Positions 4,846 through 29,836 of a stretch of 64,000 nucleotides of DNA are shown here, in pieces. The position numbers and the translations under genes are program-made. The first letter of the stretch is position 1, and each line of letters starts with the position of its first letter. This stretch comes from an uncultured virus (IMG/VR IMGVR_UViG_3300009093_000038) (Duplodnaviria; Heunggongvirae; Uroviricota; Caudoviricetes): IMG/VR virus record IMGVR_UViG_3300009093_000038. One strand, 5' to 3'. A model generated the notes under the pieces. It saw only the letters and a list, made by a program, of their open reading frames with translations. It searched no databases and was not told the DNA's origin.

Positions 4846-5253
4846 TCACAGTTTGAAAATCCCGTTCGGTCCGGTATCCCAGTGAATGACCACGTCTCCG
4901 CCTTGAGGGTTCCAGGGCAAACCGTTGCCGGTGTCGAGGTAGCAGACGAGGGTTGACGTGCTCTCGTTGCCCGTGTCTTTGAAAACGATGAAAGCGCCAA
5001 TTAACGGGCCAGTGACTGCGTTGAGAGTGATGTTCGAGGCCAGGGCGACTCCGTTGTTGGCGGTTTTGCCGGTGAGAGCGCCGGAGATCGCGATGCGGGC
5101 TGATAGCGGCACGTCCGAGAGCGAGTGATGGACATCTTTCAGAAAAGTGTAGTTGGCCGTGTTTACCAGCAAAACCTTAAAGGTGTTGTTGATCCAATCA
5201 ATTTGTCCCGAGAGGAACTGCTGATTGGCGAATGTGTAGCGCTCGTTCGACAT
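4846..5253 (-). CDS. Putative virion structural protein
   Basis: IDW..TFKVLLV..LTGKT..WDTGPNGIFKL style of phage structural proteins; GTAGTTA motif upstream. Confidence 0.55.
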   Translation of the reverse strand: MSNERYTFANQQFLSGQIDWINNTFKVLLVNTANYTFLKDVHHSLSDVPLSARIAISGALTGKTANNGVALASNITLNAVTGPLIGAFIVFKDTGNESTSTLVCYLDTGNGLPWNPQGGDVVIHWDTGPNGIFKL

Positions 5254-19400: not shown

Positions 19401-19723
19401 ACATTCGAATCGTAGCGTTGCACGAAGGTCCGGCTGACGGAATGAAGACCATGGCCTCGCACAGCACTGCCGTCCACGACGGCCAGGCTTACGTGTGGGA
19501 CGGCGGAGAGGATCGGTCTCGTTTCGTCCATGCCATGACCCTGCTATCGCGGCAGCCTCGCGAGCTGGTTATCCAGGAGCAGGAGAAGATGCGAGATTTT
19601 ATCAATCACCCCGAGCGTAATTGGAACGTTGACCCTCGATCAGAAAAAGGACCGCTTCACGGCATACCAGAGTGGCGTCTCAATTTATGGATTGCCCTGT
19701 TTCAGTACGGGGAAGTCGCATAG
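19397..19723 (+). CDS. Hypothetical protein
   Basis: ATGA coupling. Confidence 0.55.
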   Translation: MNIRIVALHEGPADGMKTMASHSTAVHDGQAYVWDGGEDRSRFVHAMTLLSRQPRELVIQEQEKMRDFINHPERNWNVDPRSEKGPLHGIPEWRLNLWIALFQYGEVA

Positions 19724-19765
19724 CGGTGCCTGGCGCGTTTCATGTTCGCGCCAGGCACTGGCTAT
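19720..19765. terminator. Long hairpin between convergent genes
   Basis: CGGTGCCTGGCGCG-N9-CGCGCCAGGCACTG, extendable by ATAG/CTAT; no clear U-tract. Confidence 0.6.
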
Positions 19766-20100
19766 TAAGCCGGTGTGGATGAAGTCTGGTGGGCTTTCAG
19801 ATACTGTTCCTGCGCCCGCAGCTTCGAAGCCTTTCTCAGTTCCAGCATCTCGCGGGCTTCGTTTTGAAAACGCCAGATAGCGCCGTAGTCGAAGCCATAA
19901 GGTCCGGTGAAACGTTTGATGATCTCGGCGATCTTTTCGCGCTGAGACGCCCATTTGTCCCGACCTATCCCGCTGGCCGTGCTCCGGCGCACCAGCTTTA
20001 AGTCGTGGATGTGTTTGCTGATCTCGGCATAGCGGGTGCGCCACTCAGCGCGCCACGTGAGATATTGTTCCTTCGTTTCGAATGTCAGTGTTGTATTCAT
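19765..20100 (-). CDS. Hypothetical helical basic protein, translationally coupled to pth2
   Basis: ATGA overlap with the pth2 stop. Confidence 0.7.
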   Translation of the reverse strand: MNTTLTFETKEQYLTWRAEWRTRYAEISKHIHDLKLVRRSTASGIGRDKWASQREKIAEIIKRFTGPYGFDYGAIWRFQNEAREMLELRKASKLRAQEQYLKAHQTSSTPA

Positions 20101-20546
20101 GGTAGTAACTGGAACCGCCGTGTGATGGTTTGTATTTCGTGCTTCTTCGCTGGACCTATACCCAGGGCGGTAATGATGGGCTGGCCACCGAAGAAATTTT
20201 CACAGCCGGAATCCACGACCAGGAAGTGCGGGATGCCGAGGCGTTTGGCTTCGTCCACGGCCTGCATGATCCGATTGAGGTTGCCCTCAAGACAGACTTT
20301 GGTGCCGGGAGAATTGGGGTGCTCGACGGAATAGGCCGCAGCGAGCGAGGGATTTTGTTGAAGCGCCTGGATGTAAGCTCCCAGGTAAGCGTGACCCGCT
20401 TGAGAAGCGGATTTGCCTGGAGTCATGCCCAGGTCTTTGCGAACGATAGCGTAGAGACGGAGAGTTTCGTCCTACGTGAATGGAGAGGCACATGGGGCAC
20501 TTTCCCCAGTTGCCTTCGAAGTTTCTAAAACCTACAGTTCTGTCAT
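20097..20546 (-). CDS. pth2: Peptidyl-tRNA hydrolase (Pth2 family) with two in-frame TAG codons (codons 5 and 25)
   Basis: LYAIVRKDLGMTPGKSASQAGHA..TKVCL..VVDSG..TALGIGP..ITRRFQLL; the promoter-proximal ATG 20546 is in frame; TAGs at 20532-20534 and 20472-20474. Confidence 0.85.
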
Positions 20547-20555
20547 AGTGGCGAA

Positions 20556-20584
20556 AATGTAAACGCTTCCTTTTTCGCTGTCAA
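20556..20584 (-). promoter_or_regulatory. Sigma70-like promoter of pth2
   Basis: TTGACA-N17-TACATT, 9 nt before ATG 20546. Confidence 0.8.
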
Positions 20585-20639
20585 ACGAAAAGTTGCACGG
20601 GCTGAGTAGGTAGGGAGAATCACTGTGGTATGAAATGAA

Positions 20640-20714
20640 TGGCGCTTCCGGCAGGGTTCGAACCTGCGACGCACCGATTTAGAGTCGGTCGTTCTGCCGC
20701 TGAACTACGGAAGC
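20640..20714 (-). tRNA. Amber suppressor tRNA, anticodon CUA
   Basis: GCTTCCG TA GTTC AGCGGCA GAAC G ACCGA CT-CTA-AA TCGGT GCGTC GCAGG TTCGAAC CCTGC CGGAAGC G CCA; all four stems pair, CCA encoded, 75 nt. Confidence 0.95.
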
Positions 20715-20723
20715 ACGGACAAA

Positions 20724-20752
20724 AAACTAAAATGTTTACATTTATGAGTCAA
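20724..20752 (-). promoter_or_regulatory. tRNA promoter with palindrome in spacer
   Basis: TTGACT-N17-TAGTTT; spacer contains AAATGT-AA-ACATTT. Confidence 0.7.
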
Positions 20753-20782
20753 GCCGGGAATAGCGAATTGATCGGGTCGCCG

Positions 20783-21133
20783 ATGAGCAAAGAGCTGATC
20801 GACGAAAAGATCAAGCGGTGCTATCGCCAGCGCCGTGTTGATAAAGTGCTCACCTGCGTCTCTGCCGTGGTGACCACGACGATTTTTATCCTGATCTATC
20901 GCCACAACTACGTGATGCTGGCTTTCTTTCTCCTGGTGGGATGGCTGGTGAATCTGGCCGTGATGTTTTATTGCCAGAGAGTGTGGTCGCTGAGGATCAA
21001 CCGGTGGGAAGCCCTGTGGAAGTGGTGCGACCTTCTGGAGCACGTCACTTTATTAGGTGAGTCAGGACCTTTTCGAGCAGGATCGGAAGGCATAACAGCA
21101 GAAATCCTCCGACGACTGCCCACTTCGAGCTGA
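20783..21133 (+). CDS. Hypothetical two-TM membrane protein (start uncertain)
   Basis: Two hydrophobic stretches; the track start inside the tRNA is rejected. Confidence 0.5.
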   Translation: MSKELIDEKIKRCYRQRRVDKVLTCVSAVVTTTIFILIYRHNYVMLAFFLLVGWLVNLAVMFYCQRVWSLRINRWEALWKWCDLLEHVTLLGESGPFRAGSEGITAEILRRLPTSS

Positions 21134-24777: not shown

Positions 24778-25089
24778 ATGCGCAGTCTTATTAACAAAGG
24801 TGAAAGTGGTATCAACCTCGAAGCTCCTGGCCGAATGGACGTTGTCGAGCAAGTCTTACGTGCGGAGCCGTTCTTTAAGCCGAAGATGCGTGGTCCTGTA
24901 CGTTGTCGCCGCACCAACCGGCGCGGAATTCGAAAACAGTACAGCGGGCTGACCGTGGAACTGGTCGGAAGGCTGGCTCGCGCTGGACTTGACGCTGTAA
25001 CGATGCGCCGCGACGAATTGATTGCGGCAGCGTATCAGCTCTGCCAGCCAGTATCTGACGGCCAGGAAACGTTGTCAGTGAATGCCTGA
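24778..25089 (+). CDS. Hypothetical protein
   Basis: Downstream of TTGAC..TGTTTACG element. Confidence 0.5.
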   Translation: MRSLINKGESGINLEAPGRMDVVEQVLRAEPFFKPKMRGPVRCRRTNRRGIRKQYSGLTVELVGRLARAGLDAVTMRRDELIAAAYQLCQPVSDGQETLSVNA

Positions 25090-25603
25090 GCAGGATGCCA
25101 AAGACCCAATCCAGGAAGAATTAGAGCGCCAGATTCTTGAGGGCGCGCCGGAAATCTGTATCTGGATGATTGTCTTTGGGTGCCTGACCACCATGGCGGA
25201 AATCCGCGAGGAATACGCTCTCAGTAGAATTGACCACTCCACTTTCTATCCTGCATTCAACAACGCGTTCGCCGAACTGATCAAGACGGCGGAGGCCGTG
25301 GACCGCTTTGGCGTTATTCTCGCGGTCGTGACCGAGAGCAACTACCGCAGGAGGATCAAGAAAGACCCCTACTACGTCATCGACGCCAAATTTTCCTCCT
25401 TTTTCTGGCGCTGGTACAACTGGTGGGCCGATCATCTTTTCGAACTGGACGATGTAGCTAGGCAAAGGCTCTTTCGGCTTGGCCACGAGAGATCGTCCAC
25501 GCTGGCAGAGTATAAGCCTCCGGGCGACTGGATGCACTATCGGCGCACCATGCCAAAAGTGCTCAATTTTTCAGTCCCGCTAGGCGTGGCAAAAGCCGAA
25601 TAG
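25082..25603 (+). CDS. Hypothetical protein
   Basis: ORF in operon context. Confidence 0.55.
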   Translation: MPEQDAKDPIQEELERQILEGAPEICIWMIVFGCLTTMAEIREEYALSRIDHSTFYPAFNNAFAELIKTAEAVDRFGVILAVVTESNYRRRIKKDPYYVIDAKFSSFFWRWYNWWADHLFELDDVARQRLFRLGHERSSTLAEYKPPGDWMHYRRTMPKVLNFSVPLGVAKAE

Positions 25604-25684: not shown

Positions 25685-28600
25685 GTGAACGAGCTGATCG
25701 AGCAAGAAGTCCTGGATGCCAAAGAGGTTTCCACGAATGAATCAGGACGCGTAGTGGTTGAATCCGACATCGACCTCCGCGACTCTCTCAGCCCATCGTT
25801 CCATGACGAAGTGGCGCAGCTCCTTTCCAACCTGGGCGTCATCGTTGAATCCCAGTGGCGGCCAGCCGGGCTGGCGACAGAGAAAAGATTTTACACGGGG
25901 CCGGTGCTCGTCATCAAAGCTGTTACCGGCAACCAGGATGTCACCGGCCCGAAGCTTGCCGAAGCGGTACGATCGCTGATCCCTGATGCGCTGCGCGCCC
26001 AGACCCGAGTCTGGTGCCCCTTCCTTCACAAGGACGTGTGCAATGAGACACTGGTCTTCGATGTGGCGGTGGCGGGCGCACCGGCAGTCCTCTTTGAATT
26101 TGCGGATGAGGACGAGATGAAAACCATCTCGGAGCCAACCGACCCGAAGGAGCGCATCATGACTGTGCTCAATGGCCATGGTTTGCACATCGAGAGCTTT
26201 GTCACGACTCCATCCGATCCCGGTTGGGGCGATCTCGGTAATCCAGTCTTTGTCATCAAGACCAATCTTCAACCCACTGAAGCTCCCTGGACCTACGATC
26301 CAGTGGCACAGTCCGGTCTAGTGGAATTCTGTGCGCGGGTAAAGCGCGACCTGGAGGAGATCACACACCAGGATGTGACGTTCGCCTCCAAGTTCGCCAT
26401 GGAGAAGGGGGCGTGGAACATTACCTGGCTGACGGATGAGCACGGTAAAATGGAATCGACTGGCGATGCTGATCTCGACGCTGAGTTGGCTAAAGAGCTG
26501 ACGAGTGACAAAGTGGATCGCGCTCTGATTGAGGATATTCTTTCCCGTTACGGTGTTCGTCTTTTGCCTGGCGACCGTCAAGGTACTGGCTTCGACATAC
26601 CCAATCAGCCCGACATCATTCCGAACACCTACCACATGTTCCGTGGGCAATGGAAACCCAAGGTCTTGTGGCACGAAGGGTCATCGCAGCTCGGTACCGA
26701 TCTTCGTAACGACATCAGCGCGCAGTGTGGGGTGGCACCGAAGGACATTTTCTTCTACATCGACTTCGCGAGCGGTGAAGTCGAAGTGGCTGTGCCGCGC
26801 AAGAATCTCCAGACGGAATCAGAGCTGGACTCCGAAGCCGAAGACGCCAAAGAGGTTGGTGAAATTCCTGCCGACCGCGACGTGATGCCGTCTGGCGTTG
26901 AGGGATGGCAGAGCCGTCTTCAAAATGCTTACGACAGCTTTGAGGAGTTTGCTTCGTACTCGGACATCTACGGGTTGGCCGAACGCCTGGGATTCGAGAC
27001 CGCTCAGGAAGCCTGGGAAGCCAATCCGATCATTCGTGGTTCCGTGAATCCTGGTGATTACGGTGTGGTTGAGAGTGCTGGTGATAAGCCACCGTGGTAT
27101 GACCCCAACGCCGGTGCGCAGAAAGTCGCCCATGACGTGGAAGGCGCGCCAGTGAAGATCGGCCAAATAGTCCGCGTGACCTCGGTTGATGAAGCAGAGG
27201 AAGGAACTGACTGGGCTAAATTGGTGGGCCAGGAGGGCAAAGTAGTCCACCTGGAGTATTCGTGCGGATGCGGGCAGTCTTATCCAGAGGACCCGATGAT
27301 CGGTGTGGAGTTTTCCGATGGCACCGTTCACGAGTTCTGGGCTGAGGAGCTTGGCACCGAGACCAATGAAGCCATCCGGGCCTACCACGCGTCGCCGAAT
27401 AAGTTCAAGAAGTTCGATCTCAGTAAAGAGGGCGCGCACTTCGGGTCTCGCGAGCAGGCGTCCAACGTCAGGAAGCATGGGCTGAAAGAGCCGGTCGCTT
27501 ACGATCTGGAGGTCAAGAATCCTTTGCGCCTGCATGACATCGGCGTCTGGAATAATTTCAACAACCTGCACTCTGTGCTCAGCGTGGGTGATCACATCAC
27601 GCCCGAGCAGGCTGACGCGGCCTGGGCCGCCTGGTTGCGGTCGGATCAGGAAGGGTGGGAGGCGCTGAAGGCCGCACTCGAACAGAATGGCTACGACAGC
27701 ATCGTCTATCAGAACGAGCAGGAAGGCCCCGGCGACTCCTACCTGGTATTCCGCGACGGCCAGATCAAACGGATCAAGGAGAACGACGAAGGTGACTTCA
27801 AAGACCTATGGGTGGACTCGCCTAGTTTATCGCACACTTTCACGTTTGTCTTTGATTTCGGTGCCGGAGAAGGCACTCAAGAGTGGGTCTGGACCGTTCC
27901 CATCGAGATGATGCCGCCTGTCGGCCCGGATGGAGATTTAGAGCCTGTCTTGGATTTTGTTAGAGAGTATGCCCGCAAGCACATGCCAGATACTCCGCCA
28001 GACGACTGGGATTTTCTTGTTGATATTAAACCAGCCAATCCTGAGAACTTGGCCGAGCTGTTGCGTGAGGACCTGAACGATGACGTGGTAGCGGCTGCGA
28101 AAGAGGCATGTAAAGAGCCAAGCGACGAACAGAAGGAAGCTGGCAATTACCAAAAGGGTCACATTGTGATCCATGGTCTTGACATCTCCATCGAGAATTG
28201 CAAAGGGTCCATGCGCCGGGGCAAGGACAAGGGCGGCAAGGAGTGGGAGGTTAAATTACCCGCGCACTACGGCTACATCAAAGGCACCGAAGGCAAGGAT
28301 AAGGATCACATCGACGTGTTCATCGGCGAGAAGCCGGAGAGCGAGAAGGTGTTCGTGGTCAATCAGAACAAGCTCGATGGTGGTTTTGATGAGCACAAAG
28401 TCCTGCTTGGATTTGAGGAGCGCGCCGACGCCATCCAGCATTACGACGACGCCTACACAGGCGGCCTGGGTCCCAAGCTGCGCGACTCGGTCGTGTCCAC
28501 CACGATGGAAAAATTCAAAGCGTGGCTCCAGGATGGCGAGCACAAGAAGCCGTTCGAGGAAGTCGAGCTGAAGGAATCCCTCCAGGAGCGGGTCAACATC

Positions 28601-29836
28601 AGCGACGTATTCGCCTACCTGGAATCCATTCGATCCAAACTCGATGAAGCCCGCGACGCGGCGGCTGCTCGTGAACAGGACGAGGACAAGAAGCGGGACA
28701 TTCTCAAGGGTCACGGCATCTACAAGGGAAGTTGCGGCCACCGCATCCAGGGCTGCCGGTGCCCGCAGGTCTGCGCCGTGATCGAGGTCCAGGCTCCGTG
28801 CCGCGAGTGTGCAAGTAAAGCCCCCATCCACGAATTCGTAAACAAGTGGCGGTCTCAACGCATTCAGGAGGCAACCGATCCTGAACACATGTTCCAGTCT
28901 CGTGAATATGACTGTGGTCCAACGTGCATCAAAATGGTGGCCAACGCTCTCGGGGTTGGCCGACAGCTCACTCTCGACGACATCATCCAGGTCTGCGGCA
29001 GCGACCCAACGACCGGGACCGACGATAAGAAGATGGAGAAGGGCTTGGCCGCCGCAGGCGTACCGTTCCAGGTAGGCGGGGCGCGCACTGCCGAAGACCT
29101 GGCGACCTCGCTCAATGCGGGCAACCTGATCATCCTGCGAACGCTAACGCGTGGCATCAAGCATTGGATCGTGCTCTACCGTTTCGACGGACAACGCTTT
29201 CTCGCACAAGACCCTTGGCTTGGTCCACTCAGCTACACGCCCGAGGAAGTCGTCAACATCTGGAAGCCTCGCGACTATTTCTACTTTGAGGTTCCGCGCA
29301 CGATGGAGCAGCGCGTGGACAGCTATCAGATTGCGACCTACGCCATGCTGAAAGCCCTGGGCGAGTCCCAGGAGGGCGGCAACCTGCTGTTCGTGAACGC
29401 GACGGGCGAAGTCATGCCTGCCCTGGAGAAAGCCATCGTGGATGTTTTCCCACGCTATGCCGATTGGGTGGTGGGCTACGCGAAGTCCGCGATGGACCCG
29501 CAGCTCTCAGTCGTGGTGCTCGATGGCCACGAGGTCGTCGGATTTTATCTCATCGGTCGGCGTGATGTGATTGACGGCACCGCTGGCATGGAGCTGATGG
29601 AAGACCTGACGCCGTACGCTCAGAAGCGTGGCGTTGAAGGCGTCGCTCTCGGGGTCGTGGGCAGCGCACGTGGACGCGGCATCGGCAACCGGCTCAAGGA
29701 TTATCCCAAGCACCTGGGCGTGGAATACGTCTGGGGACTTCAGATGAGGAAGCTCGGCAACTTGAAGGACTGGCTCAAGCGCCGACGCCTGGTTGCGCAG
29801 AGCGCTGAGTGCTTCGCCACGCTCGAAGATTTGTAA
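25685..29836 (+). CDS. Polyvalent protein: CarS-like SH3, ADP-ribosyltransferase-like, inorganic pyrophosphatase-like, Cys-rich, C39-like peptidase and GNAT-like domains
   Basis: HDVEGAPVKIG..YPEDP; AYHAS..GAHFG..GYDSIVY.N..E; EAGNYQKGH..HYGYIKGT..DEHKV; QSREYDCG..HWIVL..DP; RGRGIG. Confidence 0.8.
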   Translation: MNELIEQEVLDAKEVSTNESGRVVVESDIDLRDSLSPSFHDEVAQLLSNLGVIVESQWRPAGLATEKRFYTGPVLVIKAVTGNQDVTGPKLAEAVRSLIPDALRAQTRVWCPFLHKDVCNETLVFDVAVAGAPAVLFEFADEDEMKTISEPTDPKERIMTVLNGHGLHIESFVTTPSDPGWGDLGNPVFVIKTNLQPTEAPWTYDPVAQSGLVEFCARVKRDLEEITHQDVTFASKFAMEKGAWNITWLTDEHGKMESTGDADLDAELAKELTSDKVDRALIEDILSRYGVRLLPGDRQGTGFDIPNQPDIIPNTYHMFRGQWKPKVLWHEGSSQLGTDLRNDISAQCGVAPKDIFFYIDFASGEVEVAVPRKNLQTESELDSEAEDAKEVGEIPADRDVMPSGVEGWQSRLQNAYDSFEEFASYSDIYGLAERLGFETAQEAWEANPIIRGSVNPGDYGVVESAGDKPPWYDPNAGAQKVAHDVEGAPVKIGQIVRVTSVDEAEEGTDWAKLVGQEGKVVHLEYSCGCGQSYPEDPMIGVEFSDGTVHEFWAEELGTETNEAIRAYHASPNKFKKFDLSKEGAHFGSREQASNVRKHGLKEPVAYDLEVKNPLRLHDIGVWNNFNNLHSVLSVGDHITPEQADAAWAAWLRSDQEGWEALKAALEQNGYDSIVYQNEQEGPGDSYLVFRDGQIKRIKENDEGDFKDLWVDSPSLSHTFTFVFDFGAGEGTQEWVWTVPIEMMPPVGPDGDLEPVLDFVREYARKHMPDTPPDDWDFLVDIKPANPENLAELLREDLNDDVVAAAKEACKEPSDEQKEAGNYQKGHIVIHGLDISIENCKGSMRRGKDKGGKEWEVKLPAHYGYIKGTEGKDKDHIDVFIGEKPESEKVFVVNQNKLDGGFDEHKVLLGFEERADAIQHYDDAYTGGLGPKLRDSVVSTTMEKFKAWLQDGEHKKPFEEVELKESLQERVNISDVFAYLESIRSKLDEARDAAAAREQDEDKKRDILKGHGIYKGSCGHRIQGCRCPQVCAVIEVQAPCRECASKAPIHEFVNKWRSQRIQEATDPEHMFQSREYDCGPTCIKMVANALGVGRQLTLDDIIQVCGSDPTTGTDDKKMEKGLAAAGVPFQVGGARTAEDLATSLNAGNLIILRTLTRGIKHWIVLYRFDGQRFLAQDPWLGPLSYTPEEVVNIWKPRDYFYFEVPRTMEQRVDSYQIATYAMLKALGESQEGGNLLFVNATGEVMPALEKAIVDVFPRYADWVVGYAKSAMDPQLSVVVLDGHEVVGFYLIGRRDVIDGTAGMELMEDLTPYAQKRGVEGVALGVVGSARGRGIGNRLKDYPKHLGVEYVWGLQMRKLGNLKDWLKRRRLVAQSAECFATLEDL

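Follow-up and report, generated by a model that had tools for sequence, protein, structure and literature searches.

That suppressor transfer RNAs (tRNAs) can unlock phage genes bearing in-frame stop codons is known in principle. In recoded phages (10.1101/2021.08.26.457843, PMC13037316) a phage-encoded suppressor tRNA translates stop-bearing genes, many and mostly late genes are recoded, coding density drops under translation table 11, and a timing device has been proposed, as far as the accessible parts of these reports go. Borges et al. describe how genome-wide phage recoding times late genes (10.1101/2021.08.26.457843), and neither the accessible part of their text nor that of a jumbo-phage survey from 2026 (PMC13037316) mentions a peptidyl-tRNA hydrolase. 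Here we analyze 64,000 nucleotides (nt) of an uncultured virus (IMG/VR record IMGVR_UViG_3300009093_000038, Caudoviricetes), a stretch that we call the window, in which the frame of a peptidyl-tRNA hydrolase gene, pth2, contains two TAG codons close to its start and lies beside a tRNA gene with the anticodon CUA. We consider this unit to be, very probably, a translational gate on Pth2 that is keyed by the tRNA. Like the recoded phages, the window would use a phage suppressor tRNA to translate a stop-bearing gene. Unlike them, the clade to which it belongs has a single target gene, a stop placed in a dispensable leader and three stop types with matched tRNAs, the rest of the coding being normal.

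Orphan suppressor tRNAs have also been recorded in jumbo phages that use the standard code, and these are the same phages as those treated below or their kin. In the available parts of the papers on Agrobacterium phage Atu_ph07 and phage XacN1, suppressor tRNAs and hydrolases are listed separately (PMC6102473, PMC5852040). For Atu_ph07 these are a UCA tRNA and two putative hydrolases, with many UGA codons as possible targets and none of them named there (PMC6102473), and for XacN1 the available text describes an in-silico read-through of 18 C-terminal amber stops only, with no target found (PMC5852040). The available text on AP-J-162 labels its CUA tRNA “pyrrolysine” (PMC11242549). The tRNA(UCA) of Atu_ph07 matches the stop codon in the leader of its own pth2.

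On the minus strand of the window the tRNA(CUA) is followed by a promoter-like element, an ATG at 20546, the two TAGs, the Pth2 domain, an open reading frame (ORF) of 111 residues and a hairpin. The cassette is a compact three-gene island, and the flanking genes lie on the opposite strand. Its parts are as follows.

20640 to 20714, minus strand: amber suppressor tRNA with anticodon CUA, the “key” (ARAGORN, Rfam)
20556 to 20584, minus strand: promoter-like TTGACA-N17-TACATT (consensus scan; putative)
20532 to 20546, minus strand: start ATG (20544-20546), sense codons for T, E and L, and the first gate TAG (20532-20534), from the reading frame
20472 to 20531, minus strand: start-less inter-stop leader of 19 codons and the second gate TAG (20472-20474, context TTC ACG TAG), from the reading frame
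20097 to 20471, minus strand: Pth2 domain, 124 codons and TGA (20097-20099) (Pfam PTH2, PDB alignment, AlphaFold, Foldseek)
19765 to 20100, minus strand: translationally coupled helical ORF of 111 residues with ATGA overlap (ORF map, alignment A3)
19726 to 19758, minus strand: GC-rich hairpin of 12 base pairs, a likely terminator without a T run (RNA fold)

An earlier reading of the letters alone, the sequence-only reading, had proposed this arrangement, which was confirmed. ARAGORN (20640-20714) and Rfam (65.9 bits) both recognize the CUA tRNA in the minus-strand unit. From ATG 20546 the frame reads MTEL, TAG, 19 codons, TAG and then DETLRLYAIVRKDLGM(41), and runs on to the TGA at 20097-20099; the TAGs are codons 5 and 25, both in frame, with a G directly 3' of each. 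Between the second TAG and Met41 the window has no ATG, GTG or TTG, as had been claimed. The coupling of the 111-residue ORF was likewise confirmed, its ATG overlapping the pth2 stop as ATGA, and the hairpin behind it folds at -33.3 kcal/mol (z = -5.58). Both TAGs and the tRNA recur in a second assembly, L089, which is 99.96% identical to the window over 10,372 nt, and the stops are therefore not a sequencing error. One contig identical to the stretch occurs in run X1, a possible source of the window DNA, and in run X2 a variant contig of 477 nt spans both TAGs with 14 differences, of which the six listed do not fall at a TAG; X1 and X2 do not amount to a clean independent confirmation.

The product of the frame is, judged by profile, fold and conserved residues, a Pth2, and peptidyl-tRNA hydrolysis is its predicted activity. 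When the frame is read after the second TAG, Pfam PTH2 (PF01981) matches residues 30-148 over profile positions 2-115 of 115, with 75.7 bits against a cut-off of 23. An AlphaFold model from a 39-sequence alignment reached a predicted local distance difference test (pLDDT) value of 93, and Foldseek gave template modeling (TM) scores of 0.84-0.92 against 2zv3 and of 0.81-0.92 against 2zv3, 1wn2, 1q7s and 1xty, which are archaeal and human Pth2. Over 39 Pth2 sequences the GK..Q..HA motif positions G19, K20, Q24, H27 and A28 do not vary, and the Asp (D87) and Thr (T101) further on show at least 90% conservation; a catalytic role is ascribed to these residues in Pth2.

ORF callers start at the Met at 20426, downstream of strand 1 (LRLYAIVR), and the sequence-only reading had called their product truncated. 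The evidence agrees: the Met41 product covers profile positions 13-115 only (59.4 bits) instead of 2-115, strand 1 forms residues 4-11 of the 124-residue domain in the model, and solved PDB Pth2 chains align from their own residue 2 to LRLYAIVRKDLGM. Profile, PDB alignment, model and Foldseek matches show that strand 1 is needed for the Pth2 domain. The gene callers, however, choose a start at Met41 or at one of the GTG or TTG codons within strand 1, which would make the upstream frame a fossil of a longer ancestor; among the 120 best homologues in a set of 5.8 billion proteins, the called start is exactly the internal Met in 48 and lies six residues before it in 19. Against such a start, the upstream strand is conserved as protein over loci of 38-63% identity and stays open throughout, both the model and the solved Pth2 structures have it as strand 1 of their sheet, Met41 is a conserved core residue of the family and not a start, and no Shine-Dalgarno sequence precedes it. 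We therefore hold an internal start to be highly improbable. Truncated calling is therefore widespread in this Pth2 family, and so, probably, is the gate; as gene callers shorten the protein, the annotations of this family have systematically wrong N-termini.

The gate reading gains most from comparison with related loci. These were collected by two alignment-based scans of viral contigs, one scan of metagenome contigs and one of species-representative genomes (18-row alignment), and derive from phage records, viral contigs, metagenome contigs and contigs of metagenome-assembled genomes; a viral-contig scan with the single protein as query returned no relatives, whereas the alignment-based scans succeeded. 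Duplicates were removed (L072 = Atu_ph07, L074 = L073, L089 = window, L192 = L191, L202 = L182, and five on contigs already included). One or more in-frame stops stand in a short leader before Pth2 in 46 of 47 distinct loci, L069 being unclear, and the stop is TAG in 42 of the 46, TGA in three (Atu_ph07, L184, L185) and TAA in one (L197). In 41/46 there is no ATG, GTG or TTG between the last stop and strand 1. The two-stop form recurs in 12 other loci, with TAG twice in L090-L095, L165, L190, L191, L199 and L186 and TAA twice in L197.

The nearest named phages illustrate the pattern. In Atu_ph07 (44% identity) a Shine-Dalgarno sequence and ATG are followed by the codons for IGEHF, a TGA, 32 start-less codons and then LRIYSIV, and in Sinorhizobium phage Phosso (42%) by the codons for KY, a TAG, about 50 start-less codons and then LRIYSII; the annotated pth2 start lies downstream of the homology region in both. 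The segment F-x-EAS-[DN]-KLRIY is kept between them despite synonymous changes at Ser (TCC/AGC), Leu (TTA/CTT) and Arg (AGA/CGC), and the stretch before strand 1 must therefore be translated. In seven further phage Pth2 genes, which belong to other subfamilies, the start is an ordinary ATG that lies 2-10 codons upstream of strand 1. Decay of the window gene into a pseudogene, for which the two nonsense codons under the standard code could be cited, is barely credible: the 124-codon domain is intact, and in 46 loci the architecture is kept with the stops confined to the leader, on which grounds we regard it as excluded. A simple pseudogene was also the outcome that the sequence-only reading had named as fatal to its own proposal, and this conservation contradicts it.

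Stop codon and anticodon vary together. A cognate suppressor was found for 39 of the 46 loci (TAG/CUA, TGA/UCA, TAA/UUA), and a non-cognate one in none of the 46. ARAGORN detected the cognate suppressor in 33 fetched loci. Rfam added one that ARAGORN had missed in L081, 35 nt before the mini-ORF (loop UUCUAAA, 36.6 bits), and a shortened suppressor tRNA at the start of the L094 locus, and in L193 the cognate tRNA lies 25 kb away on its contig. Whole-record tRNA scans found a single tRNA(UCA) and no CUA in Atu_ph07, whose leader stop is TGA. In Phosso, with TAG in the leader, they found no UCA and a pair of tRNA(CUA) genes, one of which is encoded on the pth2 strand 4.6 kb upstream of that gene. 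L080 also has a TAG leader, and the complete genome of 480 kb to which it belongs contains one tRNA(CUA). L184 and L185, with TGA, carry tRNA(UCA), and their TAG relatives L067 and L068 carry tRNA(CUA). The L197 leader (GTG, KFT, TAA ... DFT, TAA, IPDPVLRLY) is homologous to that of the window and has next to it a similar tRNA with anticodon UUA; its stop context is TTCACGTAA as against TTCACGTAG in the window, that is, TTCACG-TAA versus TTCACG-TAG, and L186 shows the same context with TAG. As read from these sequences, there are three independent compensatory switches, TGA/UCA twice and TAA/UUA once. Each of the 35 suppressor genes within the fetched loci is encoded on the same strand as pth2, at 68-4330 nt from it in the first set of loci and within 5 kb in most loci. 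The sequence-only reading had asked for conserved upstream stops and linked suppressors among homologues, and had ascribed full-length Pth2 to amber read-through by the adjacent tRNA; leader-stop conservation, stop/anticodon covariation and recurring double stops strongly support that view.

In the window tRNA, ARAGORN places the anticodon CTA at gene position 33, the Rfam tRNA score compares with a gathering score of 29, the discriminator base is G and the CCA end is encoded in the DNA, so that by Rfam and ARAGORN the gene has the cloverleaf and the stop-complementary anticodon of a nonsense suppressor. It is encoded 94 nt upstream of the pth2 start on the same strand, and would be charged and decode UAG. 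Its closest relative among 172 tRNAs compared is the pth2-linked CUA tRNA of L082 (0.82 identity), and the CUA tRNAs in this comparison are mostly nearest relatives of one another, as is expected if tRNA and gene travel together. An exact-pattern scan of viral contigs for its anticodon arm gave 0 matches. In L186 (3897-3971) and L191 (3890-3965, = L192) the tRNA(CUA) gene lies within the pth2 leader, between the two TAGs and open in frame, and excising the tRNA from the transcript would separate the start from pth2. Divergent from the window tRNA, a small two-helix membrane-like ORF lies at 20786-21133 on the plus strand; longer ORF calls at 20639-21133 (plus) and 20705-21043 (minus) cross the tRNA and look spurious.

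Which residue the tRNA inserts may be judged from ungated homologues. Three of them (P0031, P0019, P0017) have Q-V in place of the gated TAG-V, P0031 at both positions; TAG and CAG thus interchange, and Gln is likely to be the inserted, or at least a tolerated, residue. The linked suppressor tRNAs vary in discriminator base and one carries a long variable arm, so that the inserted residue need not match across loci. Such variability is expected where the identity of the leader codon matters little.

Several observations weigh against a tRNA-keyed gate and should be taken with the rest. No RNA run carrying the stretch is among the listed sequencing runs, all of which consist of contigs. The ATG of the window has no Shine-Dalgarno sequence, and the promoter call alone is no better than chance. 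The ungated homologues indicate that the gate is dispensable in some lineages. No cognate suppressor was found in seven of the 46 loci (L071, L093, L178, L182, L189, L190, L194), all incomplete records, and the L178 contig, 58% complete, has 25 tRNAs and zero suppressors. XacN1, unlike the gated clade, has CUA suppressors together with an ordinary start of its own pth2, and suppressor tRNAs of this type may have other roles. A canonical start is possible between stop and strand 1 in L073, L166, L184, L185 and L195, with a GTG directly after the TGA in L184 and L185, and in many loci GTG or TTG codons within strand 1 could start a shortened protein.

Part of this evidence would also suit an ordinary upstream ORF, with Pth2 made by basal near-cognate read-through or by non-canonical re-initiation and with the tRNA as an incidental neighbor. 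Single-stop loci do have short ORFs with a good Shine-Dalgarno sequence before the stop, and the seven loci lacking a suppressor and the GTG codons of L184 and L185 point the same way, as do five copies in bacterial genomes with the mini-ORF out of frame and no stop suppressor seen. Such an arrangement leaves unexplained why stop type tracks anticodon over three switches and why the two genes are linked on one strand within 5 kb in most loci; moreover, the stops are followed by no common non-canonical start codon, and basal read-through of two serial stops should be vanishingly rare. We judge this explanation to be improbable, and the gate to be the better account.

The five bacterial copies (L167-L171, from isolates of Bosea, Psychromonas, Sphingomonas, Mesorhizobium and Pararhizobium) are of interest in their own right. 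At about 4870-5000 in each locus a Shine-Dalgarno sequence precedes a mini-ORF of 2-7 codons, from which in 5/5 the start-less pth2 frame can be reached only by a +1 shift, with C after every stop. Out of frame and lacking a stop suppressor, these copies imply a tRNA-independent mode of recoding in the family. Bosea and Sphingomonas share UCG CAU UGA CC, and each genome encodes an unusual tRNA, called “Ile aat”, whose loop is GUAAUGA in both; the AAUG within this loop is the complement of the CAUU found at the shift site (Bosea, Sphingomonas; L174 1491-1565). The leader could be a prfB-like frameshift or a site of quadruplet decoding. Chance is a further possibility, given that an in-frame TAG leader occurs in another phage locus together with a tRNA whose anticodon is AAU and whose loop differs. 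A search of 401 genomes of the order of Bosea for more +1-type copies returned only the query genome itself. It is conceivable, although on present evidence rather unlikely, that the leader of the Pth2 clade is a general sensor of termination failure keyed to dedicated recoding tRNAs, with amber, opal or ochre suppressors in the phages and a +1 shift at a stop followed by C in the bacterial copies. If true, there would be natural orthogonal pairs of tRNA key and codon lock, possibly including a quadruplet decoder, each serving essentially one gene, and in L186 and L191, where the tRNA sits inside the leader, tRNA processing would compete with mRNA integrity.

Other phage tRNAs carry an A in position 34 (aat, ata, aag, att), and to two more ARAGORN assigned four-base anticodons (gcaa, cgct). 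They lie at these positions:

L187, 5365-5444 and 5555-5636
L191, 4640-4730
L200, 1778-1863
L212, 1177-1818
L168, 4759-4836

A phage that reads TAG as sense throughout, in the manner of code 15 in crAss-like and Lak phages, would make the stops in pth2 incidental. A suppressor tRNA is present, as this would require, and phages are known to time their late genes by recoding, according to the accessible text of 10.1101/2021.08.26.457843. The tests covered the 64 kb of the window, whose Pth2 is placed by the protein database on a contig of 245,196 nt, as well as two phage genomes in full and the flanking parts of the loci. Table 11 leaves the long genes of the window uninterrupted, and 17 of its 96 greedy ORFs end in TAG. 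Long ORFs continue in frame without a start codon no more often after the cognate stop than after the other stops in the window (TAG, 2/42), Atu_ph07 (5/452) or Phosso (23/331, versus 26/573 for TGA). For code 15 and code 4, neither a spread of in-frame stops nor fragmentation of genes was seen.

The position of the stop is also specific, lying always within the first codons of pth2 alone. We defined a signature as a Shine-Dalgarno sequence, an ATG, at most eight codons, a stop and at least 90 open codons, of which at least the first eight are start-less. In Atu_ph07 (490,380 nt) it occurs once for any stop type, and that occurrence is the pth2 leader. In 374,763 nt of window and loci it matched 15 times with TAG (13 of them pth2), four times with TGA (one being the pth2 of Atu_ph07) and once with TAA; GC-rich Phosso has a background of 14 matches over all three stops. 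Genome-wide recoding is thus unlikely on these counts, which for the window cover 64 kb of a contig of about 245 kb, and general reading of TAG as sense, with pth2 a bystander, is extremely improbable beside a gate confined to pth2.

Three in-frame ORF pairs in the window are separated by a single TAG. A 173-residue ORF at 25082-25603 (plus strand) ends in TAG and is in frame, with no intervening stop, with a 1383-residue virion protein at 25685-29836 (plus), which has a lytic-transglycosylase-like region and to which read-through would fuse it. The junction may be due to chance, as about one such pair is expected. The others are 51447-51854/51867-52232 and 42243-42629/42714-43040, both on the plus strand.

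How the gated frame is expressed can be sketched from its signals. Two promoters had been claimed. The element TTGACA-N17-TACATT at 20584-20556 is present with 10/12 consensus matches and ends 9 nt upstream of ATG 20546, but shuffles yield 1.0 +/- 1.0 such matches per region, and the promoter call is therefore weak when taken alone; the one proposed upstream of the tRNA (TTGACT-N17-TAGTTT, read by hand) fell below the scan threshold. A like element is found at the same position in 6/6 other double-TAG loci having upstream DNA, ending 9-11 nt before the start, and the window element at 20556-20584 is a putative promoter. A Shine-Dalgarno sequence is absent upstream of ATG 20546 and from the other double-TAG loci, and single-stop loci have good ones. 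The placement of the element and the missing Shine-Dalgarno sequence suggest that the double-TAG mRNAs are nearly leaderless. In the first 18 loci a purine stands directly 3' of 16 of the 19 gate stops, and a purine in that position is a context favoring suppression. The leader RNA at 20460-20550 folds no better than shuffles (z = -0.46).

Two other routes into the pth2 frame were considered and rejected. Entry by a +1 frameshift from the ATG at 20493, which is out of frame, lacks a slippery site, and the relatives are in frame. Translational hopping between two identical ACGTAGGTT sites (L090-L095) would land the ribosome before the second TAG again.

We propose that ribosomes starting at ATG 20546 would encounter UAG twice, at codons 5 and 25, and would get as far as the Pth2 domain only where the phage tRNA(CUA) decodes both in competition with release factor 1 (RF1). 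Termination at the gate would leave just a peptide of 4 or 24 residues; read-through would yield Pth2 and, via the ATGA overlap, the coupled 111-residue protein. Pth2 output would then track suppressor activity, approximately as its square with two gates, and the hydrolase would be made in step with the timing and the degree of the weakening of termination by the phage. The steep-switch kinetics, the competition with RF1 and the physiological purpose, including any role in counter-defense, are our suppositions from the arrangement, and timer, feed-forward and feedback versions of the gate fit it alike.

The neighborhood lends some support to the proposal of the sequence-only reading that the cassette belongs to translation rescue. 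Phage transfer-messenger RNA (tmRNA) genes, some of them permuted, lie within a few kb of gated pth2 or next to it in six loci, adjacent to it in L081:

L081, 9410-9762
L067, 1843-2235
L069, 4747-5142
L184, 1682-2191
L185, 720-1223
L200, 6286-6634

RNA ligases are among the pth2 neighbors in Atu_ph07 and in a mycobacterial prophage. The gated Pth2 is probably part of a phage module for ribosome rescue and tRNA recycling. In that case the manipulation of termination by phages would be connected with tmRNA and with the recycling of peptidyl-tRNA, in a ribosome-rescue module run by the phage.

The 111-residue ORF belongs to a family found downstream of pth2 in related loci (alignment A3, 15 members). 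The family is helical, is conserved 3' of pth2 and has the motif F.TREEYL.WR..W...Y...S..IR.LK; Atu_ph07, Phosso and others have a longer paralogue, which is extended at its C-terminus by a beta-rich domain (FHFNKKHL...PMW..KAKG). As to function, the ORF matched no Pfam or PHROG family, and its Atlas model is helical with no informative match. The hairpin at 19726-19758 lies between the cassette and a convergent plus-strand gene and was not called by a terminator scan. An HD-motif protein (..YHDCGKPFCR..) occurs 3' of pth2 in L073 (10363-10965), L079 (10363-10962) and L169 (5376-6000), and in Sphingomonas an HD-motif protein is fused to pth2 in one frame. The window as a whole is phage DNA with a GC content of 55.6% and PHROG matches to a baseplate wedge protein, a helicase, RusA, dUTPase, the 1383-residue virion protein and tail spikes, and the stretch was matched in rhizosphere and soil metagenome sequencing runs.

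A full-text literature search, which did not extend to subscription journals, found no paper linking a suppressor tRNA to a pth2 leader. There appears to be no earlier description of a conserved leader gate on Pth2 that is confined to one gene, has matched keys of the amber, opal and ochre types and exists in a version with two stops. If the gate is real, the orphan suppressor tRNAs of standard-code jumbo phages gain a first conserved target and a testable function.

Of the known regulatory systems, the closest in logic is prfB, the gene for RF2, in which an early in-frame stop ties the yield of a translation factor to termination through a +1 frameshift, and the product acts on the signal itself. 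The analogy drawn by the sequence-only reading holds for this logic, as an early in-frame stop would make product yield termination-dependent in both. It does not extend to mechanism: start, stops and Pth2 domain of the window are all in one frame, and the window would rely on in-frame read-through by a dedicated tRNA, in contrast to a +1 frameshift. The bacterial relatives L167-L171, with their +1 arrangement and stop followed by C, resemble prfB in this respect. The bar minigenes of phage lambda are very short ORFs, a classic source of peptidyl-tRNA drop-off cleared by Pth, and act as toxic decoys in pth-defective cells; the window likewise has a very short stop-ended ORF, which is here fused in frame to the hydrolase gene. 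Finally, in engineered amber-suppression switches, which combine an orthogonal tRNA with a TAG close to the start of a reporter, a gene is off without its cognate suppressor and serial TAGs sharpen the response, as would be the case in the window. Those switches are synthetic, whereas the window is apparently a natural and conserved example, in which case the amber-switch design of synthetic biology, including the response-sharpening version with two codons, would be one that is used in nature.

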